A stretch of DNA of 64,000 nucleotides, from positions 852 through 64,851 of the forward strand of contig JACPLC010000005.1 of NCBI GenBank assembly GCA_016186695.1, given 5' to 3'. The notes below the pieces were generated by a model, which worked only from the letters and a program-made list of their open reading frames with translations, searched no databases and had not been told where the DNA came from. The position numbers and the translations under genes were made by a program. Of this stretch, positions 40,592 to 61,659 are shown piece after piece (position 1 is the first letter of the stretch; each line of letters begins with the position of its first letter). This DNA is from Candidatus Kaiserbacteria bacterium (GTDB taxonomy: Bacteria; Patescibacteriota; Minisyncoccia; Phycocordibacterales; UBA2100).

Positions 40592-40663
40592 TCCGGGGTA
40601 ACTCAATGGTAGAGTGACTCCCTGTTAAGGAGTAAGTTGTGGGTTCGAGTCCCACCCCCGGAG
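40592..40663 (+). tRNA. tRNA-Asn (GUU); integration target of an island
   Basis: Acceptor TCCGGGG/CCCCGGA, anticodon loop CTGTTAA, T-arm GTGGGTTCGAGTCCCAC. Confidence 0.85.
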
Positions 40664-42147
40664 CTAGGTGAGACAGCAGACAGTTTACGGATAGTGTCAT
40701 ACGGTTTTCGCAAGGCAAACCGTAGCTCTTTTCCTTTCACTGTCGAGTTCTGAAGTAAGTACGCTAGAATCTCCCGTTTTTCATCCGGTTCAGAACTTCC
40801 GAAGATTTCTCCGAAGCGTTTGGAGATGCTCAGCAGCGTCCCAACATGGATGTGATAGCGATGGTCGGCCTTCGTGTGTTGCTCCATCTCCGCATTCAGT
40901 CGATCCTGCGACTCCTTCAGTTCTCGTAATTTATTATCATACTCATCGGTGGTAATACTCCCGTCCAGTCGAAGGTCCAGTAGGCTTTGTATTCGCTTTT
41001 GGGCCTTGTCGTACTCCGCACGTATGCGTTTAACCTCGCGCTCGTAGAACACCGCCTCGCTATCGTGGCTCTGACGAAGTTCGGTTACCAACCGTTCGTG
41101 CACTTGGTCCGGGACGTTTTCGAATTCCTTGAAAAGCGCGTGGAGCGGTTTCAGGAGGTCCTCTTCCGACGTATATACTCGCTTGCAAATACCTTTCGCA
41201 TTCGTGCAGGAGTAGTAGATGTACTTGCCCTTCTTCAGTTCGGGGCTCATGAGACAGCCGCAATCTTCGCAGCGAAGTATTCCTTTCAGGGCAAACGGCT
41301 TCGAGAGTATTTTCGAACGCTTGTCGCCCCTGCCTTCACAGACGTCCCGGCATCTTTCGAACAGTTCTTGAGATATCAGACGTGCATATTTGTGCTTGTG
41401 TTCTCCGTGCTTCCTCGATTGCGCGAAACCGATGTAGAAGCGATCCTTCAGAATTCGCTCTACATTGCTACGCGACAACTTCTGGCCTTTGAGCCCTCGT
41501 AGGCCGAGCTTGGTTATCTCTATCCAGAGTGCGCGAATCGAATACGAACCTGAGGCATATAGCTCGAAAAGCTTCACGATCAGATGGGCGCGCTTCGGAT
41601 CCGGAACGATATCATTCAAGATAACTTTTCCTTCGGCATCCTTTTTCTTATCACGGATGTATCCGATCGGCGGGTGTCCGGTGAATTCTCCATTACGGCG
41701 CTTATGCTCGAACGTGCGCTTTACGTTGTCGCTCAACTGCAAGATATACGCATGTGCCATGAGTACTCCCATCTCCCAGCGGATGATGTCCGCGCTGTTG
41801 GAATGCCTGTGTATGACCAGATTCTCGCGGTAGAAGTGAATCTCGACCTTGCCCTCTTTCACTAACTCGTCCAAGTACACCATGTCCTTGAATGAACGCA
41901 TGAGGCGGTCGATCGTATCGAACACGACCGCCATACATTCGTTGGTGCGTTCCCCCTCTTTCACCACGCTTTCTAATGCCTCCCTGAACCGCTTACGCTC
42001 TCCACGAGTGGACGATTCTTCGATCTTGTAAGTCTTCCAATGCTCGAGACCTCCTTTTTGCTTCACGTAGTCCGAGACTCGCATGATTTGAGCTTCGTTC
42101 GAATCTTGCTCTTTGTCGGAAACGCGAGCGATGATTGCAGATTTCAT
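40603..42147 (-). mobile_element. Large serine recombinase (integrase)
   Basis: N-terminal resolvase domain with catalytic Ser (IIARVSDKEQ), a Cys-cluster zinc ribbon (CEDCGC...CTNAKGIC) and a coiled coil. The last 61 nt of the ORF are antisense to tRNA-Asn. Confidence 0.85.
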
Positions 42148-42160
42148 ATATTTGTTATTG

Positions 42161-43282
42161 TTATTTTACTCTAATTTTCCTCTTAATTTTCCCCAGCAGG
42201 CGGACGGGTTTGTACGCCCGCAGCTGAGCGTTCATCTCCTCGTACCATTCTTCGGGCCGCAACCCCACGAGGGCGGCACCTATGCTACGCAGGCTTTTCA
42301 CGAGGCTGTACCACGTCGCTACGCGCCTTTTGGAGAGCGCGAGCGTGTTTCTTAGTCCTCCCATACCGCCTTCGTCTTGCGCGAGAGCCAGCAGCCCCAC
42401 GAGGCGAATCGCGTGTGCGACCCCTATACCCCGTCGGGCAAGCATGATGTCGCGCAGCAACGCTTGCGGTCCCGTTCGACGCGAGAAAAGTATCGCGTCA
42501 TCTCTGTTCGCGAGCTTCTCCCAGTAATGAAGAATGACCGCCTTACTCACTTTTAACGAGAATGCTTTCCTGAACGTGAAAGCATCACCGTGGCCCACAC
42601 TCACGAGCAGTCGGCGTAGCTTCTCTTTTCTTGTCAGCCGCACCTCGAATCTCACGATGCTATCTTCCTGAGATAACACCTCCATCGTTTCTTCGTCGAG
42701 CTCTCGCTCAAGTTCCGCGAGCTTGTCGTACACCGAAATCATGTGCGACTTCGTGTACCACTGCACTCCCGTTCCGTCGTTCGAATACTTCACGTTCGTC
42801 TGCTCGATGCGTCGGTTGGCGTTGATTTTCGCCAATTGACCGATGACATGAGAAGCCGAATGCACTCTTTTTAGGATGACGTTCTTCGAGTAGTGGATCT
42901 TGGCTATCTCCGCTTGTCGCAGACATACGTCGGAGACCTCTACCCCCATCCTCGAAACCCGATCCTGCAGAAGCGCAATCACCGTCTCGAAATGACGTTC
43001 CGTCAGCTCGTCGAGATTGTGACCAAAGACGAGCTTCGGAGCGGAGAACTGGACATGCATGAACGAGATGCTCTTACCGTCGCGCCACGACACGTATCCC
43101 GTAAGGAGCGGAAAATACATACCTCGCGCCACATCCTCCGGAGGCGCATCCTTGACGTATCTTCCATAACCGCGCCCGGTAGCGCGGAACTCCCATCCCT
43201 CCCACTCACGACTGCCATCGCACTTGATCCTCCTCGGCAGTGTCGCTTGCATGGGAATAGTCATGACCACCGTGTCGATCAT
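42161..43282 (-). CDS. Rep_trans-like rolling-circle replication initiation protein (putative)
   Basis: Motifs SVYDK and VRFEVRLTRKE resemble the RstA/RepC FYDK ... RFELE signature; 373 aa. Confidence 0.5.
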   Translation of the reverse strand: MIDTVVMTIPMQATLPRRIKCDGSREWEGWEFRATGRGYGRYVKDAPPEDVARGMYFPLLTGYVSWRDGKSISFMHVQFSAPKLVFGHNLDELTERHFETVIALLQDRVSRMGVEVSDVCLRQAEIAKIHYSKNVILKRVHSASHVIGQLAKINANRRIEQTNVKYSNDGTGVQWYTKSHMISVYDKLAELERELDEETMEVLSQEDSIVRFEVRLTRKEKLRRLLVSVGHGDAFTFRKAFSLKVSKAVILHYWEKLANRDDAILFSRRTGPQALLRDIMLARRGIGVAHAIRLVGLLALAQDEGGMGGLRNTLALSKRRVATWYSLVKSLRSIGAALVGLRPEEWYEEMNAQLRAYKPVRLLGKIKRKIRVK

Positions 43283-45829: not shown

Positions 45830-46765
45830 ATGGGACTCGATCCAGCACAGGGGTACAAAACGAGGCGTGGAAAGATGTTAATCGGCACTGCAGAAGATAT
45901 TCTCCGCTCTCCTGCAGCCAAGAGATACAAAGGTAAGATACAGCTCGTTTTCACATCACCACCCTTTCCGTTGAATAGGAAGAAGAAATACGGGAATCAT
46001 CAAGGGGAACGATACGTTGAATGGTTGGGAGATATGGCTCTTTTGTTGAAGGAGTACCTTACAGAGAATGGGTCAATCGTTATGGAGATGGGCAATGCGT
46101 GGCAACCTGGCGCTCCCGTCATGTCCACGTTGGCACTACGCTCGTTACTCGCTTTTCAGGACAAGGCAAATCTTCATCTCTGTCAGCAATTTATATGCTA
46201 TAACCCCGCTCGTTTGCCCGGCCCAGCGCAATGGGTTACGGTGGAGCGGGTTCGAGTAAAGGACTCTTTTACTCACGTTTGGTGGATGTCACCAAACGAG
46301 CGGCCCAAAGCCGATAATCGTCGGGTGTTAAAGGCTTACAGCAAAGCCATGTTGCAGCTGCTTGCCACAAAGAAATACAATGCCGGAAAGCGTCCTTCTG
46401 AGCATTCCATCGGTGCGAAATCGTTTCTGAAAAATAATGAGGGTGCTATTCCATCGAACGTCTTGACCTTGTCCAACACTCGAACCAACGACCAGTATCA
46501 GCTCTATTGTCGTACACACGGCTTGCAGGTGCATCCCGCTAGGATGCAAATGGATCTCGCAGATTTCTTCATCAAATTTCTGACAGAGCCGGGAGACCTA
46601 GTGTTGGATCCTTTTGCAGGAAGCAACACTACGGGGGCTTCCGCCGAGAGATTGAAACGTCGTTGGATATCGATAGAACCCAATCAAGAGTACGTGAAAG
46701 GTTCATATGGCAGGTTCGCAGAAGAAAACGAAAACAAAAAATATGACGACGCAAAATTTATTTAG
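45830..46765 (+). CDS. Beta-class DNA methyltransferase (N4-cytosine or N6-adenine)
   Basis: Motif IV VFTSPPF at the N-terminus and motif I DPFAGSNTTG near the C-terminus. This is the beta-class order, and SPPF favours m4C. Confidence 0.8.
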   Translation: MGLDPAQGYKTRRGKMLIGTAEDILRSPAAKRYKGKIQLVFTSPPFPLNRKKKYGNHQGERYVEWLGDMALLLKEYLTENGSIVMEMGNAWQPGAPVMSTLALRSLLAFQDKANLHLCQQFICYNPARLPGPAQWVTVERVRVKDSFTHVWWMSPNERPKADNRRVLKAYSKAMLQLLATKKYNAGKRPSEHSIGAKSFLKNNEGAIPSNVLTLSNTRTNDQYQLYCRTHGLQVHPARMQMDLADFFIKFLTEPGDLVLDPFAGSNTTGASAERLKRRWISIEPNQEYVKGSYGRFAEENENKKYDDAKFI

Positions 46766-49034
46766 CATCCTCTTGAAAGCCGACACGTGTGCCGACGTGG
46801 AGGCAGCGATTACTCAATTTGAGAATGAGCACTCTGCTGAATGTACGTGGGTTCCCGTTGGGAAAAAAGATAACAATTCCGGTCCAATCAATATTGCTGC
46901 GGATCCGGGACGTTCCCTTGTGGAGCGTCTAACCAACGCAGTGGACGCCGTTCTCGAACGTGAGCACGAAGTGCGCGGCGGAAGCCCCGTCTGTCGAACA
47001 CCGCGTGAGGCTGCAAGTGCATGGCTGGGTATCCCGTCTGGAGGTCTCAGTGAAATGACGCAGCAGGCTCGGCGTGATCATGCGAATAATGTGATCATTC
47101 GTATCACCGAGGGTGAAGGTAGCAGAGAGGCTCGAACTGTAGAAGTGAGAGATCAAGGAATTGGGATTACGCCCGATCGCGTACCGACTACCATTCTTAG
47201 CTTGAATGAAAGTAATAAATGGCAAAAGCATTATCTTGCCGGAACATTCGGGCAAGGAGGATCGAGTACGTTTGCGGCCTCAGACTACACTCTCATCGCA
47301 AGCCGATACAAGGACGAACCTGTCGTTGGGTTTACTGTGGTGAAGTATCGCGACTTACCCCCAGATCTATTTAAGACTGGCCATTATGTGTATCTCGTTC
47401 TCAACAGCGCAGTGCTTCAGGCGGAGATTCCCGTTGAGGAATTCACTCGCGGCACGTTAGTCAAACATTTCGGCTACGACCTCACTTCGTATTCATCTCC
47501 TTTAGGGCCAAATAGCATATACGGTTTGCTAAACCAAACGCTCTTTGATCCGATTCTACCAATCTGGCTGGATAGCCGAGTACACAACTACCGCCGTGTA
47601 ATCAAAGGCTCTCGTAACGCGCTAAATGGCGCACTCGACGAAGGAGATGAGGGTTCTGGTCCAAAACTGTCACACAGCGCGCGGATGTTCTACATAAATC
47701 TTGGGGAATTCGGACAAATCGGCGTTGAATATTGGGTGTTAGAACGACCGAGTAAACAGGACAAACGTCCGTCGGCGGCATTCGTGAACCCCACGAAACC
47801 AATCATCCTCACTATCAACGGTCAGAACCAAGAAGAGATGTCCGCACTGCTCATACGCAAAAATTCGGAATTGCCCTATCTCTCGCAACGATTGATTTGT
47901 CACGTTGATTGTAATGGCTTGCACGCCGATGCGAAACGCTCGCTCTTTTCCTCCACCCGAGAAGGTGCACGCCGGGGGCTCATACACGACCTCATACAAA
48001 AGGAGATTATTCGCATACTACGCTCGGATGACGAGCTTACCCGTCTCAATGAAGAAGCCCGCAAGCAAGGAGCACAGGAGATGGATCAAAATGCCGTACA
48101 GCAGATGCGAAAAGAAGTCGCCAGAATTCTACAGATGCAGGGAGTAAACGTAGGAGATATCGGCGGCCTTGAAGTATCGACTGGAGATGGGGGAGGGTTA
48201 GATCGACCTCGGAAACCGACTCCGCCACGGCCACCAGTCGTTCCTATACCTCTGAAGGAGCCACCAACGTATATAAAAATACTATGGGATGAGGGAGAGG
48301 AGATTCCTTTTCATCCCGAACAACGGCGGTATATAAGAATCGAAACAGATGCAGAAAGCCGCTATCACAGAGCAAACGCGGAATCATCGCCAACTAACTT
48401 CATTGTGTCTGGAGAAGGCCTCGTATTGAAAGGCACCACGTCGTTGCAGGGAGGCCGCATGCGTGCCGTTTTTGAAGCTTCACCTAACGCTGAAGTCGGC
48501 GAGGGCGGGACAATTCGCGTTGAAATGACACGAAAGGGCCTCCCGACACTTACGGATGAAAGAAAATTCAAATTTGTTGTGCCTCCGCCAGTTCGTCAAA
48601 GCGAAAGCAAGCTTACCTTGCCGCCCTTTAGAGTGCAGCCAGTAGAGGGACCCGAGGATGCTCGGTGGACGGGTTTAGGTTGGCCTGACGACATCAACAT
48701 TCTTGCTTCTTCAGCGGAAATGGAGAATGGCGAACTCGTTATTTATTACTCCACCGTATTTCCTCGCTTCGCTTCCGCAAGAACTGCCTTCGAAAATCGC
48801 GACGCCGCATTGGTTTCGTCGTTCATAAAGCGCTACGAAATCTGGCTCGCAGTTCATTCATTTCTCTGGCATCGAGATCAAAGTACAACAGAGCCCGCTA
48901 ATCAAACGGAAGAGATGATTGCCGCAGCCGAGGCGCATGAGCAGCAAGAACGCTGCCGCATAGCAACCCTCTCCACGCTCTTCGCATCACGTGAGGCAAG
49001 ATTTTCCCAGGCTCCGCTTGAAGAACACGAGTAG
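46743..49034 (+). CDS. Large GHKL-ATPase domain protein (MORC/paraMORC-like), candidate restriction/defence partner of the methyltransferase
   Basis: GHKL N-box (LTNAVDAV), G1 box (VRDQGIGI) and G2 box (GTFGQGGSS) in the first 200 aa, followed by about 550 aa with no recognised family. Overlaps the end of the MTase. Confidence 0.6.
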   Translation: MTTQNLFSILLKADTCADVEAAITQFENEHSAECTWVPVGKKDNNSGPINIAADPGRSLVERLTNAVDAVLEREHEVRGGSPVCRTPREAASAWLGIPSGGLSEMTQQARRDHANNVIIRITEGEGSREARTVEVRDQGIGITPDRVPTTILSLNESNKWQKHYLAGTFGQGGSSTFAASDYTLIASRYKDEPVVGFTVVKYRDLPPDLFKTGHYVYLVLNSAVLQAEIPVEEFTRGTLVKHFGYDLTSYSSPLGPNSIYGLLNQTLFDPILPIWLDSRVHNYRRVIKGSRNALNGALDEGDEGSGPKLSHSARMFYINLGEFGQIGVEYWVLERPSKQDKRPSAAFVNPTKPIILTINGQNQEEMSALLIRKNSELPYLSQRLICHVDCNGLHADAKRSLFSSTREGARRGLIHDLIQKEIIRILRSDDELTRLNEEARKQGAQEMDQNAVQQMRKEVARILQMQGVNVGDIGGLEVSTGDGGGLDRPRKPTPPRPPVVPIPLKEPPTYIKILWDEGEEIPFHPEQRRYIRIETDAESRYHRANAESSPTNFIVSGEGLVLKGTTSLQGGRMRAVFEASPNAEVGEGGTIRVEMTRKGLPTLTDERKFKFVVPPPVRQSESKLTLPPFRVQPVEGPEDARWTGLGWPDDINILASSAEMENGELVIYYSTVFPRFASARTAFENRDAALVSSFIKRYEIWLAVHSFLWHRDQSTTEPANQTEEMIAAAEAHEQQERCRIATLSTLFASREARFSQAPLEEHE

Positions 49035-49035
49035 T

Positions 49036-49710
49036 ATGAACGGAGAAAACGGAATCAACCGAGACATGATCTCCTACTACAAGGATCGTGCCCAAGAATA
49101 CGACAGAAAGGCGTACGACCCCCATGAACAACCCGAAAGACAAGCTGATATCAAGGAGGCCTCTCGGATACTTCAGGATGTTTTCACAGGCAAGAGTGTC
49201 CTCGAAATCGCAGCGGGACCGGGATTCTGGACCACGATAATCGCACAAGCAGCGAAGTCAATTACTGCAACCGACGTGAACGAAGCGGTCATCGATCTAG
49301 CCCGAAAAAAACAGTACCCTGAAGGCAAAGTGACGTTCCGTGTTGCCGACATGTACGCACTCGGAGACATGCCTCTACACGACGCATTGTTCGGAGGATT
49401 TATTTTCAGTCACATTCTCAAGCAGGACTACGACAAGTTTCTAGACGCCATCAATGGCTACGTCCGCCCCGGGGGGAGTGTGGTACTGATGGACAACAAC
49501 AGAACTCTTACTCCGAGACCGGCGGACAGGACTGATGAGCAAGGAAACAACTATCGGCTGCGAACACTCGAAGATGGAAGTAAACACGAAATCGTCAAGA
49601 ACTATCCAACCCAGGAGGAACTCAGGTCTGTGCTACGCAATCGCTCAACCGGTATGGATTTTAAGAACATGGAGCATTACTGGATTTTGACGTATCGAAC
49701 CAGTACCTGA
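49036..49710 (+). CDS. Class I SAM-dependent methyltransferase (paralogue 2)
   Basis: About 65% aa identity to the gene at 9361-10020. The start at MNGENG abuts the GHKL gene stop. Confidence 0.7.
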   Translation: MNGENGINRDMISYYKDRAQEYDRKAYDPHEQPERQADIKEASRILQDVFTGKSVLEIAAGPGFWTTIIAQAAKSITATDVNEAVIDLARKKQYPEGKVTFRVADMYALGDMPLHDALFGGFIFSHILKQDYDKFLDAINGYVRPGGSVVLMDNNRTLTPRPADRTDEQGNNYRLRTLEDGSKHEIVKNYPTQEELRSVLRNRSTGMDFKNMEHYWILTYRTST

Positions 49711-49842
49711 ACGACAACGCGAAGTATCGGTACGACCCCAGCAATCTTTCCGACTGGAAGAAGCTGAAGTTCTAGAGAACACTGCAGAAAAGCCCCGGTT
49801 GTACACCCGGGGCTTCTTGACACCTATGCGCGGTGCTATACT

Positions 49843-50021
49843 CAGTTGATCTCGACGATGGTTGCTCCGCTGGCCCAGTCTTTCACCTTCTGAGCCGACT
49901 GTTTTGCGGCGTAGCGTGTAGTATACGCTTCGCTCACGGCAACAATTTCGCCGTTGCCCGCCTTGAGCCTCCAACGTTCTCCTTTTGCCCGATCTGTGTA
50001 GATCTCAAACTTAGAAGCCAT
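49843..50021 (-). CDS. DUF1508 (YegP-like) small protein
   Basis: 59-aa ORF below the ORF-track length cutoff: MASKFEIYTDRAKGERWRLKAGNGEIVAVSEAYTTRYAAKQSAQKV. Confidence 0.6.
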
Positions 50022-50159
50022 TGTTGTTTGGTTTTATCATTTAACCCAGAGCGTCTGTACAGAGAACGGTTCGACTACGCCATTACCACTCTGGTGATGT
50101 CATTTTACCGAGTCGGTAATAGCATTGTCAACACAATTTGGTATGTATATAATGTGGAT

Positions 50160-50510
50160 ATGGTAAACCCGGAGAATAAGTACACTTTTATTGGGCAGCG
50201 AATTCGTGAAGCGCGAGAGACGGCGCACCTGTCTCAGCGCGAACTTGCCGAGAAACTCGGTTATGAGTCCGCAACGGCAATTTCATACATCGAGTCCGGC
50301 GAACGAAAGGTTTCGGTGGTCGACCTCGAGCAAATCGCCACCATCCTCGATAAGGACATCCGCTACTTCGTCGGGCGAGAGGACCAGCAGCCCAACGTCC
50401 GTGTCGCGCTTCGCGCTGAGACGGGACTCGATAAGAAGGACCAGGATGCCATCCTCCACATCATCGAGATGGCGAAGAAAAGAGCGAAGAAAGATGGAAC
50501 CGACAAATGA
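50160..50510 (+). CDS. XRE-family HTH regulator
   Basis: LSQRELAEKLGYESATAISYIESGER HTH. A TATAAT box lies 9 nt upstream. Confidence 0.75.
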   Translation: MVNPENKYTFIGQRIREARETAHLSQRELAEKLGYESATAISYIESGERKVSVVDLEQIATILDKDIRYFVGREDQQPNVRVALRAETGLDKKDQDAILHIIEMAKKRAKKDGTDK

Positions 50511-51021
50511 CAGAGCACGGATAGGATCGGCCAGAATCCTCGCGAGGGATCTTATTAAACGATGCAAAATCAAAGAACCACCTGTTTCTCTTGGCAGCAT
50601 CATCATCCTTCTGCAGAGAACACACGACCTGAACCTCTATCCAGCGGTGGATTTTTCAGACAGGCTCTCGGCTATTCTCGTAACGGTTGAGGATGAGTCT
50701 GTGTCCACTCGAAGGGATGAGATTCATTTCAACGAGAACCATAGCTGGCACCGGAGGCGTTTCTCTATCGCCCATGAAATCGGGCATCTCCTTTTCAACA
50801 CGACATGCAACCAGACCGGCGTGTTCTCATACGACGCGTCTTCGCCAAACGAAACTGAAGCAAATGCGTTCGCTTCGGAGCTTCTCATGCCCCTCTCTTT
50901 TCTTAAGGCCGATTTCAAACGAGGTGCGGCACAAGTACCTGAACTTGCGTGGCGGTACATCGTAAGCAAGGAGGCCATGGGCTGGAAAATAGCGAGCACC
51001 AACCTACTGACGCGAGTATAA
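50494..51021 (+). CDS. ImmA/IrrE-family metallopeptidase
   Basis: HEIGH zinc motif (IAHEIGHLLF). Overlaps the preceding XRE gene, the classic repressor/protease pair. Confidence 0.7.
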   Translation: MEPTNDRARIGSARILARDLIKRCKIKEPPVSLGSIIILLQRTHDLNLYPAVDFSDRLSAILVTVEDESVSTRRDEIHFNENHSWHRRRFSIAHEIGHLLFNTTCNQTGVFSYDASSPNETEANAFASELLMPLSFLKADFKRGAAQVPELAWRYIVSKEAMGWKIASTNLLTRV

Positions 51022-51086: not shown

Positions 51087-52889
51087 TCATGCACACATGC
51101 CCCCTCCTATGCCAAAGACATGTACCTGGACAGTGTAGGCACGTATTGCAGGTCGCGAACTGCTATAATCCAATCGACCGTCTTGAAGGCGCTTAGTTCT
51201 GAATGCGTCCAACGACCGGAGCAGAGCACCTGAAGTAGTCGGTAAATGACTGGGTCGGGTGTTAACAGAGGGCTTTTTTGAGGTTCGAGAATGTAATCGG
51301 ACTTCCGGAAGCTCTAACGGAGAAATTGGTGCAGGAATAGGCAAACCACCGCTTGGGACAACAGTTTCGGCGGTGTTTTGCATTGGTTCGAGAATTGCGT
51401 TGACCTTTGGCATCCAGTCAGCAAGGAAGCCGAAGGGTTTTGTGTACGATGGCACGACCTGTCCCTTGAGCACCGACACGCTGGAGAACGCATACGACAA
51501 GAGCAGTCGGCGTTCCTCCACGGTGGCTTTCTCACTATGGTAGATGTCCTGCGCACGCAAGGCAAGCTCGTGGATGGCGATACCGACCTTGTAATACTCC
51601 GTGTTGTCCGATTTGAGATTGTCGAGCGCCCCCACCAGACCTTCTTCTTCCTCGGTGAACTCTTTGAGCCGCTGGTCGTAAAACGGGACGGTAATCCTGC
51701 CGTCGAGCTTATCGTCGTACATCACACGCTTACGCTGCTGTATGCGCTCAAGGGAGTTGTTTATGGACTGCACCTGCGCGTCGTGGTATTCGATTTCCTC
51801 GCTGTGGCTCTCTTTGAGTGCCTTTGTGAGCACTGCAAGCACCTTCGCGCCACGAGGGGCTACAGCGACAGCGTGAGGCAACAGACGGGCTTCCAAGTCC
51901 TCCTGACGTATGTATTGCTTTTTCTCGCCCAGTTGGGCTTTACACTGCTTACAGCCGCCATACCACTGTCCCTTCTGCCGCTCCCACGTAACGGTTTTCT
52001 TGCACGCACCGCATAGCACCTTGCCCTGTAGCTCTTTGAGGTGCTTACCGTAGTACGGGCGCGGACGACCGCCATTCAGCTTCTCTCGAACCCCATCGAA
52101 CAGGTCTTTTGATATGAGCGGCTCGTGCTTCCCCTGATACAACACGTCCTTCCACAAAAACTTCCCGTAGTAAAACGGGTCTGAAAGTAGCCGGTGTACC
52201 GCGCTCTTTACCACCTTACTCCCGCCCCGACTGCGTAAGCCGAGAACGTACATTTTTTCAGTGAGCGCCTTGATGGAGTAACTTCCTGTTGCGTAGAGCG
52301 TGAACATCTGTTTGATGAGTGGAGCGACTTTCTCATCAACCACGTGGATTTTATGTCCCTTCTCACCGACGGACTTGTATCCCAGCGGCGGCTTCGTTGG
52401 CAGCCACCCCTGCGATATTTTTTCCTTCTGACCCTTCTGCACATTCTCTGACAACAATCTGACGTAATACTCGGCTGTAGCCACTTTTACACGCCACATA
52501 AACCATTCGTGCGATTTCGAGTTTTTGTGAAGCACGCACCCCTCTTTCGCGAGGTGTATCTGGTGATTTTCGTTCTCCATCAGCCACTGGTCAATGGCGG
52601 GTACATCGGCAAAGTTTCTAGTCAGGCGGTCTGTGGTCTCAACAATGATGACGGGGACTTTGCACTTACGCACATAGTTAAGCATTTCCTTGAAGGTCTT
52701 TCTGTCAATTTTACCGCTCGCACTTTCCGAAATCTGAAATACTTTCGAGATTTCGAAATTGTTTTCATTTCGCGATGCATATTCCTTCAAAAACTTCTCC
52801 TGTGCCGGAAGTGAATATCCCGTTTCTTCCTGCTCTTTTGAAGACACACGAGCGAATATAACAGCCAATGTTTTCTTTTTGGTTTCCAT
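51087..52889 (-). mobile_element. Large serine recombinase (second copy)
   Basis: AVIFARVSSKEQ catalytic region, a recombinase domain, a zinc ribbon (CGACKK...CKQCK) and a coiled coil; 600 aa. Confidence 0.85.
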
Positions 52890-53620
52890 ACAGTTTGTTA
52901 CCTAATTTTATCAGTTAGCCAATAAGCTCATAGTGAGCGAAATGCACAATTTTCAAGTCATAGATTTTTGTATTTAGTGAACTTTGGGTAAAGCGAGCTC
53001 CAAATCCCTCGTGTAGAAGGGATTTGATTAGAGAGCGTTTGCCCGTTTTCTCTCGGCACTCTCTTGCGGGAAACTTGAAAGCTCGTGAGAGCCCAACTCC
53101 GCATCTTGCGGCGACCAGTGATGCTTACGCATCGCACGCTTGCACGTGGGTTTGCCTGAAGGACATTGAAGTTTTTTTGTGTCGCAATCCCGCTACATCT
53201 CAACGACATTTCGTACGATGCGAACTTTGGTATAAAGCGTCGCCCCGTATCGCCGGTCTTTTTTAGCGTCGCTTACCGGCTCTACCCCTCCCGACGTTGG
53301 CATCAGCGCCAAAACCTGCCTCGATTTACATCGGAGCAGGTTCTGATGTTGGGCGTCCGCGATGGTCAATTTTTGCGAGCAGGTTGAAATACGAAACCCA
53401 CCCGAGAAGTACCTCTCTGGCTTCGTCGAAGCTCAAATCAACGCCGTAATCGTCCTTCGCGGCGTTCCTGAACTCCTCTACGGTCTGTTCGCTGACCATA
53501 GAGCCAGCTTATTCATTGACCCTATCTGCCTTACATACGGCACTGCTATCTCCATCAAGAAGAAAATGGCTCTACGCCGTCGCTAAATATCGGATATGAA
53601 CAGTACGAAAGGCAGAGACC

Positions 53621-54301
53621 CTACACTTTGATGACTTTGTATGCGGGATTTATGCGATACCCGCTATCTTTTTTTCCTTGAATGACCTCACCTCCATCAA
53701 TCTTGAGAAACTTTTTGATATTCTTTCTGATTTTAGCAATTTCGGTTCGTACCTGTTGCTTGTTCTTGCGTTCCAAACGCTCTGCAATCTCGCCAGTCAT
53801 ACGATACCCGTCGTTCTCGACAAGGTGGCTCAATATCCTGAACCTGTCGCTAGTAGCTTCCATCGCATAGCAGAGCTTGCCCTTCGGCTCGCACCAAAAG
53901 TTGCCGTCCTTATCAATATAAAGATGCGTTCCCGGCGGAGAAATTAACTTCTTTTCCCCGAACACCTTCTCCTCATATTCTTTGGCACGGGATAGAAAGT
54001 CCGTCGGGAATTGAATTGCCCAAGTGTCCTCCTGATACATATCTTCTTCGGCGGCGTCTTCTCTGCTATGGAATATTCTTCGCGTTATCAATCCCTGTTG
54101 CATAAATTGCTCTAGCACACGACGAATTTGCAGGTGATTGAGTTGGGCGACTTTTTCCAAGGCAGCGGCATCAAAATAGACGTAGTCGAATGGGATATAT
54201 CCAAGCTCGAACTCGTTCTGTAACACAGCGAGTATCGCAAGCAGTTTTTTACTCGCATCAGTCATAGTGGCTACAATACCTAACCTGCCAGTTTTTGCCA
54301 A
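53621..54301 (-). CDS. Putative winged-helix transcriptional regulator
   Basis: C-terminal OmpR-like wHTH pattern (GYRMTGEIAERLE...IRKNIKKFLKIDGGEVIQ...GYRI). Confidence 0.45.
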   Translation of the reverse strand: MAKTGRLGIVATMTDASKKLLAILAVLQNEFELGYIPFDYVYFDAAALEKVAQLNHLQIRRVLEQFMQQGLITRRIFHSREDAAEEDMYQEDTWAIQFPTDFLSRAKEYEEKVFGEKKLISPPGTHLYIDKDGNFWCEPKGKLCYAMEATSDRFRILSHLVENDGYRMTGEIAERLERKNKQQVRTEIAKIRKNIKKFLKIDGGEVIQGKKDSGYRINPAYKVIKV

Positions 54302-54313
54302 TCTGTATTACGA

Positions 54314-54514
54314 GTGATACACTTGCCGTCAATGGCAGAAAAAAACTACCGCATTGAGGATGCAAGGAAACTGCTTGGTGTGAGTGTGAGGTCTATGTAT
54401 CGGTACATCTCCGAAAAGAAGCTTCGGGCGACAAAAATCGGACACTGGCGTATCAGCGAGGCGGACATAAAAAGGTTCATTGCGGAGAGAACAAATATCA
54501 GGAAGCACAAATAA
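54314..54514 (+). CDS. Excisionase-family HTH (HTH_17-like) DNA-binding protein
   Basis: LLGVSVRSMYRYISEKKLRATKIGHWRISEADIKRF. Confidence 0.6.
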   Translation: MIHLPSMAEKNYRIEDARKLLGVSVRSMYRYISEKKLRATKIGHWRISEADIKRFIAERTNIRKHK

Positions 54515-54518
54515 GTGT

Positions 54519-54719
54519 ATGAAACACGACCACTGGGTAAACATTGAAGAAATCAAGCCGCCGATGGGCGAATTGAAATTTGCTGCCAAAGCTACGATAC
54601 ACGAAATCGGCAAGGGTGAAGTAGACCACGGTCTTGGAGAAGTGTGGGGCAAGACGCGGGAGGAAGCTACCCAAAAAATGAATGAGAAAATCAAGCAGTG
54701 GCTTGAGACACAACAATAA
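54519..54719 (+). CDS. Hypothetical small protein
   Basis: 66-aa ORF immediately upstream of mod. Confidence 0.3.
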   Translation: MKHDHWVNIEEIKPPMGELKFAAKATIHEIGKGEVDHGLGEVWGKTREEATQKMNEKIKQWLETQQ

Positions 54720-54721
54720 CT

Positions 54722-56510
54722 ATGGACGATAAGGAAATCGCACAGGAAAAAGAGAGGCAAATATTTCGACTTCAAAAGGAAAACGAAAAGCTAAAGAAAT
54801 CAATCAAGACCCAAAGATACGGGCTTGTTTGGGCGGACGTACCGGAAGCTTTCGATGATGATGTAGAAAACAAACTTCCTATATTTGAGGAAGTATCCAA
54901 GCTCGCAATAAAGAGCAAGGACGAAAAACCAACGCACATTTTGATTGAGGGTGATAACTATCACGCACTTACTTGTTTGAGCTACACACACAAGGGCAAG
55001 ATTGATGTCATTTACATAGACCCCCCCCTATAACACCGGCTCTGATGGTTTCCGCTACAAGGACAAACGTATTCTGGACAGGTATCCCGACGGCACAGAA
55101 GTACCAAAAGACCATCCATTCCGACACAGTTACTGGCTTTCTTTTATGAGCAAGAGGTTGGAACTTGCAAAAAGCTTGCTCAAAAAGAACGGGGCAATTT
55201 TTATTTCAATAAACGAAGATGAGTTCGCTCAACTCAAGCTACTGTGCGACCAAATATTCAATCCGGAAAACTATCTAGCGATGTTTACAATCAAGGTTCG
55301 ACACGAGGAGCGTATCCTCAAAGGCGATAAAGATTTTCACGAAGTTGTGGAGTACTTACTGATGTATCGGGCTAGTTCAGAATATAAAACGGTGAAAAAG
55401 ATTTACGATAACACTTCTCTCGACGAATATGTGTACCAAATAGTCGAAAAGACCAAGAGACCAAAAACAATCAAGCTCGGTAACAAAACCGTGGAGGTAT
55501 TCTCCCCTCAAGAATATGAGGTGGTAAAGGTGTCTTCGAACGCCAACAACCTAAAAAAGATAAACATTCGGGGTTCTATAAAGGAAGGCAACAGTAGTGG
55601 TCGTTTTTATATGGCTTACCTTGAACCGCTCAAAACAAAGGGCGTTTTATACAAAGTGTCCGATATGGGAAATGATAAATTCGGATACCGATATTTCCTC
55701 ACACCGATGAAGTTATCTCGCGTGAATGGTGATTACTTTCAGGGAGTGCCGTTGGGTATAAAGGATACGAAAGAAGTACCGTACCCGAACTATTTTGATT
55801 TTGAAAAGGACTTCAATTCAGTCGGCTATGAGGGTGGCGTTAATTTCGGTGGCGGCAAGAAACCCGTCAATTTTCTCAAGCGCATCATAGGTATCGGCTC
55901 TATGAACAAGTCGGCAGTGGTGCTGGACTTCTTCGCAGGTTCGGGAAGTACAGGAGAAGCGGTGATGAAAATGAACGAAGACGATAAGGGTACTCGCCAG
56001 TTCATTCTCATTACCAATAACTACGAACTCGTAAAAGATAAGGTCTATAAACCAATGGAGGAGGCGTGCTATCCTCGCATAAAAAATGTCATCAAGGGCT
56101 TCAATGGTAACAAAGGGGTTGGAAATTCTGCAAAGTACTACCGCACGGGGTTCGTCGGCAAACACAGTATCGCTGATGCAGATGATAGAGATAAGTTGCA
56201 ACTCGCGCATCACGCAGGAGAGATGCTTTCAGTTGCAGAAAATACACTTGAACTCGTGGAGGAAAATGAATACTGGCAAATCTTTGAGAGTAAAGACCTT
56301 TACACCGCCGTCTACTTTCGGGAGGAATACAACGAGTTTGATGATTTCATTGGTCGAGTTCGGAAGCTAAAAAAACCGGTATCCGTATATGTTTTTAGCT
56401 GGGAGGACGACCCATTCGTCGCGGATTTTGAGGACAATCCAAACATTACAGTAAAGACAATCCCGCAACCAATACTCGAAATCTATAAGCAAATCTATAA
56501 CCTCCTATGA
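54722..56510 (+). CDS. mod: Type III restriction-modification methyltransferase Mod, split by a frameshift at a poly-C tract
   Basis: N-terminal EGDNYHAL, then IYIDPP followed by a run of 8 C, after which YNTGSDGFRYKDKR continues in the +1 frame (ORF 55146-56510). Motif I DFFAGSGSTGEA lies near the C-terminus. With 7 C residues the protein would be a single product of about 596 aa. Confidence 0.8.
55021..55028 (+). repeat. Poly(C)8 homopolymeric tract inside the mod DPPY codons
   Basis: The sequence reads ata gac ccc ccc cta taa, which gives a premature stop. Seven C residues would restore gac ccc ccc tat aac acc (DPPYNT). Confidence 0.85.
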
Positions 56511-58897
56511 CCCTTGCGCCTCTCAAATTCCAAAGAGATGCCGTTGAAAATCTTACAGAGGTTTTTGTAAAGCTATGGAAGAAGACCGAAAGAAAACTAC
56601 CGATAGTGCTCAAATCTCCAACTGGTAGCGGCAAAACATTTATAACCGCCCTTTTAATTCGAGGTCTCAACCATCTACCGCAGTGGTCGGAAGATAAGGC
56701 GTTCATCTGGATTACCTTCAGCGATGAGATTGCAATGCAGAGCAAGGAAAAGTTCGGCAGATATTTTGAGAACAATCTCGAAAATAACACGCTTACCGTA
56801 CAGGACATCAATCGAGGCAAACTGTACGCAAACGATATTCTTTTCCTCAACTGGCAAAAAGTAGTCCAAGACAATGCGACTACCCGTCGTCTCAAATTAC
56901 GACGACCAGACAAGGAGGATGAAAGAAAAGAAAGTGGCAAATACTTTGAGGACTTTATCGAGGGTACTAAAGAAGAAGGACGAGAAATTGTCCTTGTTAT
57001 TGATGAGGCGCACAAGAACGTGGATACCGAGCTAGCACAACATATCGTATCAATGATAGACCCTAAAATTGTGCTTCACGTCTCTGCAACACCAGCTGAC
57101 GGCATAGTTGCAGAAGCCGCAGAACATAATAGCTTCGTTAAAGTAGACCGCGAAGAAGTCGTTGCAGAAGGACTTATCAAAGAGAGTATTGTTTTGCAGT
57201 CCGAAGAAGATTTGAAGAAAATGGGTGGTAAAGACCTTGATGAAGTTCTTCTGCAACTCGGAATAGACAAGCGAGAAACACTCGTAAAGGAGTACAAAAA
57301 ACTCGACAAAAATGTAAATCCTCTAGTTCTTATTCAGCTCCCGAACGACGACACTCGCCTTGTTGAAGCTGGCGAACGAACAAAAGAAGAAGTGGTGATG
57401 TCTTTTCTAGTCAAACAAGGCGTCAAGGAGCACAAAATTGCACGCTGGTTTGACGGGAAAAAGGAAAATATGGAGGGCATTACAGACAATGAAAGTGATG
57501 TCGATTTTATGCTTTTCAAGCAAGCCGCGGGTACGGGCTGGGATTGCCCGCGCGCATCCATTCTCGTGATGTTCAGAGAAATAACCTCAAACACTTTCTA
57601 CAAACAAACGGTCGGTCGCATCTTGCGAATGCCAGAACCACAGTTGAGAGACGATTACAAAAGCAGTCCTCTCCTTCGACGCGGCTACCTCTTCACCAAC
57701 TATCGGCGCAATCAGGTACAGATACCCGACCAAAATGACAACAATAAAGCCCAAACGCAGTCAGCGCACATCCGTTCCGGAGTACAAAACATTTCACTGC
57801 AATCCGACTACATTCCCCGTGTTGATTATGGCGACATTCCGCGCTCCTATAAATTCCAAGAAAGCTTCAGGAAATCGTTTGATGAGCATTTTGGTCTCGC
57901 GAAGGGCGACATACTCGGAAAGGCGCAGGAAAAATTAAAGAGTAAAAAACTTGACCTCGATGGCACTCTTCTGAACGCGATAGTAGCTGACGCCGAGTTT
58001 TCTGACTTCGACCAACTCGCATTCGAATTCGTGAAGAAAGGTAACGATGTTTCTCTTGAAATGTCAGTAAGCGATATTGAAAAGACCTTCAATTACCTCT
58101 GCTATCAGTTGCTCCAAGAACAGGAAGATGAACAGGCAAAATACGCTAACATTGCTCGTTCGTGGAGCGTCTTAAAATCAGCAATCCGTATCTGGTTCAA
58201 GGGCGTGCTGGGAGAAGATAGCTCATATTATTATCGCGTGTTCATCAAGGACATCCAAAAAGGTGCTGAAAGCGTGTTTCGACCTGCAATCACCAAAGCT
58301 CTCCGCGATTTCAAACCCATTGCACAGAAACTTATTGCTGACCGAAAGAAAGAGGTTGAGGAGAGAGAAAGTCCTGTCTTTACTGTTCAGTCAGAATATC
58401 AATACACAGACGACTATCGGGAAGTGCCGCAAAAACTTTGCGTCCTCGATACTTTCTATCTATTGTCTTCATATACTGGGCGCGATAACGAAATGAACTT
58501 CATCAAATACTTGGAGCAAAAGAAAGGAAAAATTGAATGGTGGTTCAAAAATGGCAATCAAGGCAAGGATTACTTCGCTGTTCGGTATATAAATTCGGAG
58601 ACGGGCAAAGAAGAACTATTTTATCCCGACTGGATTGTCCTTTTCAAGGACGGACGTATCGGCATATTTGACACAAAGAAAGGACGTACGGCTACTGATG
58701 CTGACACTGCCGATAAGGCAAGAGCTTTGCAAGCCAAAATAAAAGAATTCGGCAAAAAATATCTCGGCGGTATTGCGATTGAAGAAGCTGGTGTCTGGTA
58801 TTGCAACGATAGCTCCGAATACACATTCAAGGGGGGTCAGTCCGTCAATGACAGCAAGGGCTGGAAACCATTCGAGACGCTTTTTAATTATGTATGA
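56507..58897 (+). CDS. res: Type III restriction enzyme Res subunit (SF2 helicase plus nuclease)
   Basis: Walker A SPTGSGKT, DEAH box VIDEAH and later helicase motifs. ATGA overlap with the mod stop. Confidence 0.85.
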   Translation: MTLAPLKFQRDAVENLTEVFVKLWKKTERKLPIVLKSPTGSGKTFITALLIRGLNHLPQWSEDKAFIWITFSDEIAMQSKEKFGRYFENNLENNTLTVQDINRGKLYANDILFLNWQKVVQDNATTRRLKLRRPDKEDERKESGKYFEDFIEGTKEEGREIVLVIDEAHKNVDTELAQHIVSMIDPKIVLHVSATPADGIVAEAAEHNSFVKVDREEVVAEGLIKESIVLQSEEDLKKMGGKDLDEVLLQLGIDKRETLVKEYKKLDKNVNPLVLIQLPNDDTRLVEAGERTKEEVVMSFLVKQGVKEHKIARWFDGKKENMEGITDNESDVDFMLFKQAAGTGWDCPRASILVMFREITSNTFYKQTVGRILRMPEPQLRDDYKSSPLLRRGYLFTNYRRNQVQIPDQNDNNKAQTQSAHIRSGVQNISLQSDYIPRVDYGDIPRSYKFQESFRKSFDEHFGLAKGDILGKAQEKLKSKKLDLDGTLLNAIVADAEFSDFDQLAFEFVKKGNDVSLEMSVSDIEKTFNYLCYQLLQEQEDEQAKYANIARSWSVLKSAIRIWFKGVLGEDSSYYYRVFIKDIQKGAESVFRPAITKALRDFKPIAQKLIADRKKEVEERESPVFTVQSEYQYTDDYREVPQKLCVLDTFYLLSSYTGRDNEMNFIKYLEQKKGKIEWWFKNGNQGKDYFAVRYINSETGKEELFYPDWIVLFKDGRIGIFDTKKGRTATDADTADKARALQAKIKEFGKKYLGGIAIEEAGVWYCNDSSEYTFKGGQSVNDSKGWKPFETLFNYV

Positions 58898-59343
58898 AAC
58901 TCCTAACGGAAAAATTCGTCCAAGACAACATCATCGAATACCTATTCCGTAAGGGGTGGAGCAGAAATCTGCGGAGTAGGAATACTGACGAGCACGGCGT
59001 AGATATAAAGGTACGGAACAACAATTTTGCACGCTACTGGCTCATCGAGTGCAAGGGCGACGCCTCCAAGACAGCAAAGTATCCCCGCTCTCATCGTGAA
59101 GTATGCTTCAATCTCGCACTTGGACAAATCATCACGCGGATGAAAAGCGACGGGAAACGCGGCTATAAGTACGGGTATAAATATGGTGTCGGTTTCCCCG
59201 CGAGCTTCGAGGATTTGGTCGTCCGGCGCTTGCCGTCCAATGTCGCCGACAAGCTCAATCTTTATGTTTTCCTTGTAGATGGTAAAGGCAAGGTCGCACT
59301 CTATGACTGGAAAATGTTAAGAGTATTGCAATCCTCAAAATGA
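58894..59343 (+). CDS. Small PD-(D/E)xK-like (restriction endonuclease fold) protein
   Basis: GVDIKV ... YWLIECKG fits D ... E-x-K spacing. 149 aa. ATGA overlaps with both res and the OLD gene. Confidence 0.45.
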   Translation: MKLLTEKFVQDNIIEYLFRKGWSRNLRSRNTDEHGVDIKVRNNNFARYWLIECKGDASKTAKYPRSHREVCFNLALGQIITRMKSDGKRGYKYGYKYGVGFPASFEDLVVRRLPSNVADKLNLYVFLVDGKGKVALYDWKMLRVLQSSK

Positions 59344-60989
59344 AAATAACTCGACTGCTCATCAAAAACTTCAAGTCCTTCAAGTCAGAAAGGATAGATT
59401 TTCGCGGTTTGATGGCGTTCATAGGAGAGAACAATGCAGGAAAGTCGAACGTGCTAAAGGCGCTCGATTTGTTCTTCAAGGACACAAAGAAACTCGACGA
59501 GGAGTATTTCAACAACAGCGCAGAGCACATCGTCATTCAAGTTTGGTTCAATAATTTAAACGATGACGCGAAGGAAACATTTAAGAAATATCTGCTCGAT
59601 GACAACGAAACAGTAGTACTTAGAAAAGAGTATTCGTTCCACGACGAAGATATGACGTTTTCGGGCGTCATACTTGGTGATAAGTTAGATGCGAAAGATA
59701 AAAAGGATGCTGTAGAAATTCTCGATAAAACCGAGATAGAACCTTTCACCTCCACGGAAAAGACCTACTACTGGAAATCCAAACCGTTTGGCTGGTCAGC
59801 CATCGCAACCGGATATCTACCCGATTTTCTCTATGTCCCAGCAGTCAAAGACGCAAAAGAGGAGGTAAAAGTTGCAGACAAGTCGAGGTTCGGACAAATC
59901 ATAAATGCAATGCTTGGCAGCGTCCTCCAGAACGTTGATTTAGTACGCATCAACGAAGAGTTTACGAAACTTCTGATGGGTGAAAATTCTAATCAGGATG
60001 GGCGCATCGCGCAACTCAAAGAGTTTGAGACGATGTTGAGTGAAAAACTTTCCGCACAGATGCGTGGTACGACAATCAAGCTAGACATCACTCCACCAAC
60101 ACTGAAAGATGTTTTCCAGTCGGGTACAAAGATACTGGTAGATGATGGTGTCTCCACAGCAGTGGAAAATAAGGGGCACGGGCTACAGAGGTCGGTAATA
60201 TTCGTGATTTTTCGAGCATACGCAGACCTTCTTAAAAAGGAACAAGGCGAGAAAGCAAAAGCGCTCATATTTGGTATAGAAGAACCCGAGCTTTATCTGC
60301 ACCCCCAGATGCAGAGGTCAATGTTCAGCATCCTGAAAGAGGTTGCGCAAACAGACCAAGTAGTATTCACGACACACTCAAGCTTCTTCGTGGATATGGC
60401 TAACTATCAGTCAATAGGTATAGTCGTCAAGAAAGATATCGAGACAGGCACGAAAATCATCCAGCACCAAGAGGATATATTTCCGCAGAGCGAAGAAAAA
60501 AAGCAGTTTCGACTACTCACAGAGTTTGACCCAGAAAGAAGTGAACTTTTCTTTGGGAAGAAAGTTGTGCTAGTCGAGGGAGATACAGAGAAGGTGGTGT
60601 TACCGATTATCGCAACCAAAATCAATCCAAAATATGTCTTCTACGACTACGGTATTACCGTCGTTGAGTGTGCGAGTAAGGAAATGATGCCCTTCTTCGT
60701 GAAAGTGCTCAACGCTTTTCGTATCCCATACACCGCTATCTATGACAGCGACAATGCCAACAGCGAGGAAAGTAAAAGGATAGAAGCAGAGGTTGCATCA
60801 TCTGGCGGTATGGGGCGAACTGAAATCATTGAACCTGACTTTGAGAAAATGTGTGCCGGTGATGGAGTAGCTATACCAACTGGCGGCAGTAAACCCTTTA
60901 AGGCGTTCAAGTGTTTCAAGGAGCTTGAAGCGGAAAAGATACCGAAACGGCTCAGAGAAATCATCGAAAAAATCTTTACCGAAGCATAA
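59340..60989 (+). CDS. OLD-family ATP-dependent nuclease (ABC ATPase plus TOPRIM)
   Basis: Walker A GENNAGKSN, Walker B LIFGIEEPELYLHPQ, H-loop FTTHS and TOPRIM VVLVEGDTEKVVLPII ... YDSDN; 549 aa. Confidence 0.75.
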   Translation: MKITRLLIKNFKSFKSERIDFRGLMAFIGENNAGKSNVLKALDLFFKDTKKLDEEYFNNSAEHIVIQVWFNNLNDDAKETFKKYLLDDNETVVLRKEYSFHDEDMTFSGVILGDKLDAKDKKDAVEILDKTEIEPFTSTEKTYYWKSKPFGWSAIATGYLPDFLYVPAVKDAKEEVKVADKSRFGQIINAMLGSVLQNVDLVRINEEFTKLLMGENSNQDGRIAQLKEFETMLSEKLSAQMRGTTIKLDITPPTLKDVFQSGTKILVDDGVSTAVENKGHGLQRSVIFVIFRAYADLLKKEQGEKAKALIFGIEEPELYLHPQMQRSMFSILKEVAQTDQVVFTTHSSFFVDMANYQSIGIVVKKDIETGTKIIQHQEDIFPQSEEKKQFRLLTEFDPERSELFFGKKVVLVEGDTEKVVLPIIATKINPKYVFYDYGITVVECASKEMMPFFVKVLNAFRIPYTAIYDSDNANSEESKRIEAEVASSGGMGRTEIIEPDFEKMCAGDGVAIPTGGSKPFKAFKCFKELEAEKIPKRLREIIEKIFTEA

Positions 60990-61656: not shown

Positions 61657-61659
61657 ACG

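Follow-up and report, generated by a model that had tools for sequence, protein, structure and literature searches.

What does a DNA methyltransferase gene do when its partner is a large GHKL ATPase rather than a recognisable endonuclease? The question is raised by a locus of Candidatus Kaiserbacteria bacterium (contig JACPLC010000005.1, positions 852 to 64,851; this whole 64,000-nucleotide stretch is called the window below). There, a beta-class DNA amino-methyltransferase gene of the M.PvuII-like type (45830..46765, + strand, 311 aa) overlaps the gene for a 763-aa GHKL ATPase of an unnamed family (46743..49034, + strand), which the alignment of its homologues, its structural model and the adjacency of the methyltransferase gene mark as a putative restriction or effector component. 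A first-pass annotation of the window had proposed a defence module resembling a restriction-modification (R-M) system at this locus and had included a third gene directly downstream. Our analysis makes it probable that the methyltransferase and the GHKL protein form a self-contained, ATP-dependent, R-M-like module of two genes only.

The GHKL gene is paired with DNA amino-methyltransferases across bacteria and archaea

The GHKL protein had 786 significant relatives in a database clustered at 90% identity, and an exhaustive search returned 1,354 family clusters at 50% identity. The family is absent from the defence-system catalogues (PADLOC). To explore its genomic setting, we collected 86 related loci, 6 from metagenome look-ups and 80 from GTDB contigs with one genome per species, using a search that was based on an alignment designated A1 and not on the divergent family alignment A2 (56 members, mean column identity 21%). 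The loci covered at least 12 bacterial phyla and 5 archaeal lineages. Bacterial carriers included Bacteroidota, Verrucomicrobiota, Acidobacteriota, Nitrospirota, Planctomycetota, Chloroflexota and Alpha-, Gamma- and Deltaproteobacteria, and the archaeal carriers were Micrarchaeota, Methanoregula, Methanocella, Thaumarchaeota and Thermoplasmata. Several bacterial and archaeal copies were 50-60% identical to the GHKL protein of the window, which points to lateral transfer because this level of identity spans the two domains; together with the integrases or serine recombinase that flank GHKL loci in other genomes, it indicates horizontal mobility. The only relatives in a viral collection were two proteins of 30% identity on IMG/VR contigs of 372 and 497 kb (L089 and L090), and the family appears to be rare on ordinary phage genomes.

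An amino-methyltransferase gene was found within ~1 kb of the GHKL gene in ~74 of the 86 loci, which is the conserved adjacency of methyltransferase and partner gene that characterises Type II R-M systems. A PvuII-like methylase (43-76% identical to that of the window) was located directly upstream and in tandem in at least 42 loci; in ~17 it came immediately after the GHKL gene, on the opposite strand. With all amino-methyltransferases counted, the downstream convergent arrangement was seen in ~20 loci. Most of the loci without a PvuII-like methylase encoded another amino-methyltransferase in the adjacent position: an alpha-class enzyme of 380-417 aa with the motifs DPFxGGGTT...TSPPY (9 loci), a second alpha SPPY type (L015 and L061), a beta-class DPPY enzyme (L021 and L022) or a Dam-like enzyme (L045). 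The partner methylases thus belonged to five unrelated types, all of them amino-methyltransferases and none a C5 enzyme. These results collectively demonstrate that the genomic pairing of the GHKL gene with DNA amino-methyltransferases is obligatory. The first-pass annotation had made this adjacency the test of its own proposal, and it proved to be strongly conserved across bacteria and archaea.

The loci that lacked a methylase were equally informative. In four of them the contig ended (L038, L066, L083 and L085), and in three others the GHKL gene was a fragment (L068, L070 and L075). The sole intact GHKL gene with no recognisable DNA methyltransferase gene in the 6 kb to its left or right was that of L063 (OZ252237.1, 1023597-1037933), which encodes a homologue of 785 aa and 36% identity. 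Truncation of the GHKL gene where the methyltransferase is missing or disrupted is consistent with toxicity of this gene in the absence of its methylase. When the other open reading frames (ORFs) near the 86 GHKL genes were clustered, no third conserved gene was found. The largest clusters were shadow ORFs inside the methylase gene, followed by a 112-aa ORF in 5 alphaproteobacterial loci and then by recombinases and a UvrD-like helicase (at most 4 loci). Variable gene order and orientation, replacement of one methylase class by another, the lack of a third partner and the decay of the GHKL gene are together the signature of an R-M pair whose second gene, the one beside the methylase, does harm on its own. 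The 112-aa ORF (L031:5649-5987 and four further alphaproteobacterial loci) immediately precedes the GHKL gene in loci with a convergent methylase gene on the downstream side, and it could be a controller-type regulator.

The partner is an M.PvuII-like beta-class methyltransferase

In the methyltransferase of the window, motif IV (SPPF) occupies residues 43-46 (45956-45967) and motif I (FAGSNTTG) residues 262-269 (46613-46636), an order that defines the beta class. The protein matched Pfam N6_N4_Mtase (PF01555) with an E value of 1.5e-30, the PADLOC model MTase_II (PDLC03323) over its whole length with 2.4e-88, and M.PvuII (PDB 1boo), an N4-cytosine methyltransferase, over residues 8-302 with 3.3e-74. 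An SPP[YF] motif N-terminal to a motif I of the form FxGxG and full-length similarity, the two marks of M.PvuII-type beta-class enzymes, were therefore both present, and the beta class assigned in the first-pass annotation stands. On this homology, the product is predicted to be N4-methylcytosine rather than that of N6 chemistry.

The start of the GHKL gene overlaps the end of the methyltransferase gene, stop codon included, by 23 nt. The GHKL ORF spans 46707-49034, and both the family alignment and the NCBI call place the start at the ATG at 46743. Scans for promoters and terminators yielded no more hits than in shuffled sequence.

The GHKL protein has an intact Bergerat ATPase domain followed by an S5 transducer

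The three GHKL boxes that had been read from the sequence (NAVDA, DQGIGI and GTFGQGG) were all recovered in the Bergerat (GHKL) ATP-binding domain (residues 1-250; 46743..47492, + strand), which was delimited by invariant columns, by profile matches to MutL, Hsp90 and TopoVI-B and by Foldseek. ERLTNAVDA occupies residues 61-69, with E61, N65 and D68 of motif I (46923-46949); DQGIGI, residues 137-142, contains D137xGxG of motif II (47151-47168); and GTFGQGG, residues 167-173, contains G167xxGxG of motif III (47241-47261). In the 56 members of alignment A2, residues E61, N65, D137, G139, G141, G167, G170, G172 and R406 were invariant, and the motif IV threonine, T198, was conserved in at least 90%. 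The invariant GHKL columns include the catalytic glutamate, the Mg-binding asparagine, the DxGxG motif and the glycine-rich lid. The motif matches are not due to chance, because their residues are invariant in a family whose mean column identity is so low, and every feature of the Bergerat fold (ExxxNxxD, DxGxG, GxxGxG and a conserved Thr) is present. The domain also bears a family-specific N-terminal extension (W36, G40 and N45).

Database searches with the single sequence detected very little. The GHKL protein matched Pfam HATPase_c with an E value of 0.0016 and 19.3 bits, which is below the curated cutoff of 26.4; no PADLOC model matched even at an E value of 10, and no match was obtained among PDB sequences. 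Searches of NCBIfam and PHROGs gave weak matches to HSP90, sacsin, TopoVI-B and RIIA. The RIIA match was to the phage T4 protein (PHROG phrog_612, E 0.0015); RIIA too is large and GHKL-like in its N-terminal part, and its function is poorly understood. When a profile of 50 homologues was compared with PDB sequences, the best match was MutL (E 0.0029), and Hsp90 and TopoVI-B were also found.

An AlphaFold2 model built on the family alignment had a mean pLDDT (predicted local distance difference test score) of 82.8. Foldseek aligned it to the PDB structures of HtpG, TopoVI-B, the GyrB 43K fragment, TRAP1, the MutL LN40 fragment, MLH1, MORC3 and MORC2 with a probability of 1.0 over 400-740 columns. 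In the model, the Bergerat domain is followed by an S5-fold transducer (residues ~251-405) and two long helices (408-465), together encoded at 47493..48152 (+ strand), and the alignments of 400-550 columns to GyrB 43K, MutL LN40, TopoVI-B, MORC2/3 and HtpG place the protein in the S5-transducer subgroup. R406, within the sequence STRE (47952-47963) and found in 56 of the 56 family sequences, is a candidate sensor of the gamma-phosphate. A Gly/Pro-rich linker (residues ~471-510; 48153..48272, + strand), modelled with low confidence (pLDDT below 50 at 474-494), leads to an immunoglobulin (Ig)-like beta-sandwich (residues ~511-615; 48273..48587, + strand) that carries a family-wide [E][TS]-D536-A motif (IETDA at 48339-48353). 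The models and residue conservation delimit a last part, residues ~616-763 (48588..49031, + strand), as a small beta unit (629-670) and three long helices (674-754), with conserved residues R697-Y698 (48828-48845), H705 and E736-R-C-R739 (48948-48959) in the helical tail; it is a candidate dimerisation and/or catalytic region. Taken together, conservation and model show an N-terminal GHKL+S5 engine that is predicted to be ATPase-competent, with the fold of GHKL+S5 ATPases known to act on DNA.

The same data bear on a possible identity of the GHKL protein as a sensor histidine kinase, which the first-pass annotation had named as one of the findings that would overturn its reading. The sub-threshold HATPase_c match is the one point in its favour. 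However, no HisKA, H-box or dimerisation domain was found, the GHKL domain is N-terminal and precedes an S5 transducer, the model resembles HtpG, TopoVI-B, GyrB, MutL and MORC in structure and not kinases, and no response regulator gene is adjacent. The chance that the protein is a histidine kinase is thus negligible.

The order of an N-terminal ATPase, a proline-rich linker and a C-terminal domain is, in the model, MutL-like. Both MutL and the GHKL protein join a GHKL+S5 N-terminal domain to a C-terminal domain through a disordered proline-rich linker; the C-terminal domain of MutL dimerises and in many species nicks DNA (PMC2292703 and established knowledge). In contrast to MutL, the GHKL protein ends in an Ig-like sandwich plus helices without DQHA(X)2E(X)4E, and its gene is paired on mobile elements with that of a methylase and not with that of MutS. 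One could ask whether the protein acts in methyl-directed repair or housekeeping, as a MutL-like protein that tells the two strands apart by the methyl mark. The family profile, whose top hit among PDB sequences is MutL, and the MutL-like domain order speak for this role, but both the MutL endonuclease motif and the MutL C-terminal fold are absent, the family is sporadic, horizontally transferred and found on integrative elements and in defence islands, its methylase classes are interchangeable, and there is no MutS-like partner. We regard a repair function as very improbable.

No known nuclease is recognisable in the C-terminal region

The first-pass annotation had reported a long C-terminal stretch that it could not assign and in which it saw no obvious restriction endonuclease (REase) motif, and had suggested a structural check for S5-fold, nuclease or DNA-binding domains. 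Of these, the S5 fold was found, following the GHKL domain, and no nuclease fold was; the stretch showed no known effector in sequence, fold or motif searches. A profile of the C-terminal domain had no match among PDB sequences, fold searches with the C-terminal region returned no known effector or nuclease fold, and a search of 5.8 billion proteins with the C-terminal domain alone retrieved nothing but fragments of the same family. The known REase folds (PD-(D/E)xK, HNH, GIY-YIG, PLD and half-pipe) were likewise not detected in the GHKL protein by Pfam, PADLOC, fold or motif searches. Regular expressions for PD-(D/E)xK, GIY-YIG, HKD, MutL DQHA, HxH and the MORC S5 motif found nothing in it, and a single loose HNH-like match at residues 281-311 was unsupported by profiles or folds.

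The region is nevertheless well conserved at particular positions. Across the divergent family, D536 of the [E][TS]-D-A motif was kept in 53 of 56 sequences and Y698 in 54 of 56, with the preceding arginine kept in the close subfamily; a histidine near position 705 and E736 were conserved as well. Judged by this conservation, the C-terminal region is more than a mere scaffold.

A working model for the module and its rivals

In the mechanism that we favour, the M.PvuII-like methyltransferase would mark the DNA of its host at a short specific site, probably as N4-methylcytosine. The GHKL protein, its ATPase engine tethered to the C-terminal region by a flexible proline-rich linker, would form a dimeric ATP-gated clamp on DNA, as do MutL, Hsp90, MORC and TopoVI-B. 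The methyl marks of its partner would inhibit this clamp; where the mark is missing, the ATP cycle could run to completion, and the clamp may then nick or cleave the unmarked DNA through an active centre in its C-terminal region, for which E534/D536, R697/Y698, H705 and E736 are candidate residues.

Several observations weigh against this reading. The C-termini of the GHKL proteins were 43-48% identical to that of the window whether the partner was a PvuII-like, an alpha-SPPY or a beta-DPPY methylase, so that the C-terminal region does not track the methylase class, which is odd if it reads the specific sequence of the methylase. It is possible that the different methylases mark the same site, or that recognition is not conventional. 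No avoidance of CAGCTG and no clear avoidance of palindromes was seen in the 64-kb window, a length that leaves this analysis underpowered. All 786 relatives are unnamed or annotated as hypothetical. In addition, the absence of a known nuclease fold counts against a conventional Type II picture.

This absence leads to a second explanation, in which restriction needs no nuclease: a GHKL dimer would topologically entrap or compact unmethylated DNA like MORC, so that foreign DNA stays uncut but can no longer be replicated or transcribed. Such entrapment agrees with the lack of any nuclease fold or motif in the whole protein, with an architecture that matches the clamp-forming MutL, Hsp90 and MORC, and with an Ig-like domain and long helices of the kind typical of binding or dimerisation modules. 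On the other hand, the strong conservation of the C-terminal [E][TS]DA, RY, H and E, in a family of otherwise only 21% identity, suggests an active site rather than a scaffold, and the apparent decay of the GHKL gene in the absence of the methylase suggests a strong toxicity that is easier to explain by DNA damage. We consider entrapment unlikely, if worth keeping in mind.

The same residues allow a more specific proposal for cutting, according to which the GHKL protein would be an ATP-dependent restriction enzyme of a new class, without a known nuclease fold, that cuts unmethylated DNA by topoisomerase-like chemistry, with E534/D536, at the end of a strand, as the metal site and Y698, in an R697-Y698 dyad, as the nucleophile. 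Cleavage would then be driven by the GHKL+transducer gate, the same as in type II topoisomerases, and a 'poisoned' cleavage complex would serve as immunity, kept off self DNA by N4-methylcytosine or N6-methyladenine. The protein resembles TopoVI-B and type II topoisomerases in its GHKL domain and in a transducer that ends in long helices, and these structures are among its best Foldseek matches, with up to 743 aligned columns. It differs from them in that no Toprim/5Y-CAP partner is encoded nearby and its own C-terminus is not Toprim by fold. We put this proposal forward as a long shot.

The GHKL protein might also be a motor or matchmaker that activates a nuclease encoded elsewhere, as MutL does for MutH or Vsr. 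The MutL precedent (established knowledge; discussed in PMC2292703), the failure to find a nuclease in the protein and the two extra conserved genes that accompany distant Ssp-linked relatives (see below) are in line with such a role. However, the cassette crosses phyla and domains without a third conserved neighbour, so a host-encoded partner would need to be universal, and the host of the window is a reduced-genome bacterium of the candidate phyla radiation. A matchmaker role seems to us rather improbable, and an effector that acts from within the two-gene module is preferred.

Comparison with known systems

Prokaryotic MORC and paraMORC GHKL ATPases have been predicted in R-M operons (Iyer, Abhiman and Aravind, 2008; PMC2292703), and the pair in the window is best read as a form of this predicted GHKL/paraMORC R-M theme. 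It shares with these systems an N-terminal GHKL domain with intact motifs followed by S5, the linkage to a DNA methylase, a sporadic and laterally transferred distribution and a family-specific C-terminal extension such as is found in several paraMORC families. The predicted systems usually hold superfamily 2 (SF2) helicases, Vsr, HNH or restriction-endonuclease (RE)-fold nucleases and mostly C5 methylases (PMC2292703). In contrast, the GHKL pair consists of two genes only, with amino-methyltransferases only and with neither a helicase nor a nuclease.

The label 'MORC/paraMORC-like' used in the first-pass annotation holds for the general theme of GHKL+S5 and R-M, and fails for the MORC S5 motif and the signatures of paraMORC2-5. 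The MORC S5 motif GhXhhpXXRhl (PMC2292703), searched as a regular expression, matched none of the 50 close and none of the 56 distant sequences of the family. The ExxxH motif of paraMORC2 formed no conserved column, its commonest occurrence being in 9 of 50 sequences; the C-terminal RE-fold of paraMORC3/Shedu type I-D (DUF4263, E-D-ExK) was absent from the GHKL protein; Pfam and fold searches of the protein found no TIR domain as in paraMORC4, and no conserved third gene was seen; and the HxH motif of paraMORC5 occurred nowhere in it. With regard to paraMORC1, the family has a conserved C-terminal extension and no MORC or HNH gene as a conserved neighbour. We think it best to treat the protein as a GHKL+S5 family of its own and not as a MORC in the strict sense.

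Type II R-M systems of the M.PvuII type resemble the pair in the full-length homology of the methylase, the variable gene order and orientation, the mobility and the setting in defence islands. In contrast to their small Mg-dependent endonuclease, the partner here is a 763-aa ATPase. To our knowledge, hardly any GHKL ATPase from an R-M context has been investigated, and VcSduA, for which tests were recently published, has a classical nuclease. VcSduA (Shedu type I-D, paraMORC3) joins a GHKL domain to a DUF4263 nuclease and has shown anti-phage activity that needs the ATPase glutamate (PMC12137116). The two proteins are alike in combining an N-terminal GHKL ATPase, a clamp-like middle and a C-terminal effector in a single polypeptide. 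However, VcSduA has a PD-(D/E)xK DUF4263 domain and needs no methylase, whereas the GHKL family described here has neither DUF4263 nor another RE fold and is linked to a methylase.

Literature searches found no description of a two-gene system of a methyltransferase and a GHKL protein. The GHKL family is distinctive in being large, highly conserved, spread over bacteria and archaea and absent from defence catalogues, and the module is distinctive in reducing the problem to two genes, with an effector that has no recognisable nuclease. Its mechanism could prove to be a restriction chemistry of a new kind or a way of silencing foreign DNA without a nuclease, and could inform how epigenetic marks are read by eukaryotic MORC and by MutL-type clamps. 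The question is directly testable since cultured carriers exist, namely Inquilinus limosus DSM 16000, Caballeronia sp. LZ035, Roseivivax sp. GX 12232 and Rhodosalinus halophilus E84.

The downstream SAM methyltransferase gene is not part of the conserved module

The third gene of the original proposal encodes a class I S-adenosylmethionine (SAM)-dependent methyltransferase of the small-molecule or protein type (49036..49710, + strand; Pfam Methyltransf_25 and Methyltransf_11). A unit of all three genes is suggested by its position, as its ATG at 49036 lies on the same strand and one base past the GHKL stop codon (49032-49034), and by a partial match to PADLOC mad2 of the MADS system (6e-18), which covers the generic SAM-binding region only. 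However, a homologue of this gene was present in 0 of the 86 related loci, and its own homologues (44-80% identical) sit in unrelated contexts, among them LAGLIDADG and DnaJ-like genes and transporters. A class I methyltransferase that neighbours a distant GHKL relative in Devosia was examined as a sign of a recurring accessory and rejected, being unrelated in sequence. A three-gene unit is thus highly improbable; as judged from sequence comparison, the SAM methyltransferase is co-oriented local cargo outside the conserved two-gene module.

Distant plasmid relatives adjoin DNA phosphorothioation genes

Plasmid proteins that were 23-27% identical to the GHKL protein over residues 1-466 shared the N-terminal extension and had unrelated C-termini. 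In 4 of 6 plasmids, these distant relatives adjoined DNA phosphorothioation (Ssp/Dnd) genes: SspB and an SspA-like cysteine desulfurase in a Devosia plasmid (L088), PAPS-reductase family genes in Ensifer pC (L087) and Hymenobacter (L091), and DndB in Rhodococcus (L094). The recurrence of a shared ATPase engine with different DNA-modification modules strengthens the view of the GHKL protein as a modification-linked effector. No match to the PADLOC models of SspE or SspFGH was obtained with the distant relatives. We also rejected their identification as SspFGH, given the lack of any PADLOC SspF/G/H match and the Walker A and FtsK-like features of the published SspFGH. These loci may represent an undescribed phosphorothioation-linked restriction module.

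In Ensifer and Devosia, the locus further includes another unknown gene and a gene annotated as 'sensor histidine kinase' (L087:3372-5702 and L088:10675-13035, both - strand), whose product has an N-terminal HATPase_c_3 and a C-terminal HATPase_c domain, an architecture that is discussed in PMC8011034. These two proteins matched the PADLOC 'Type II REase' models PDLC03419 and PDLC03485 through the GHKL region, which implies that GHKL domains are present in some of the Type II REase families in the catalogue.

Genomic context of the pair

In the window, the block that holds the methyltransferase-GHKL pair is bounded by a tRNA-Asn gene (40592-40664). A large serine recombinase gene (40603-42147, - strand), the end of whose ORF overlaps the tRNA-Asn gene, is followed by a rolling-circle Rep-like gene (Phage_CRI/Rep_trans-like; 42161-43282, - strand). 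Directly downstream of the SAM methyltransferase gene, ORFs for an XRE-HTH protein and an IrrE/ImmA-type M78 metallopeptidase overlap in different frames (~49833-51021); XRE/ImmA-type pairs are typical of mobile-element or prophage regulation. A second serine recombinase gene is located at 51087-52889. A second copy of the 3' end of the tRNA-Asn gene, which would represent an attachment-site (att) repeat, was searched for and not found. This arrangement suggests that the methyltransferase-GHKL pair is carried on one or two integrated elements.

Just beyond the second serine recombinase gene is an island of lower GC content (~0.43-0.45; 53600-62700). The recombinase and Rep block and the adjoining island, with its Type III R-M and OLD-family nuclease genes, place the pair on mobile DNA inside a defence hotspot. 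The island encodes a Type III Mod as two ORFs (54722-55033 and 55146-56510), a split that suggests a frameshift or phase variation, and a Type III Res (56507-58897). An OLD-family AAA_15+TOPRIM protein (59340-60989) follows, and then come the genes for tRNA-Phe and tRNA-Arg (61585-61732) and that for a tyrosine integrase (61732-62664, - strand).

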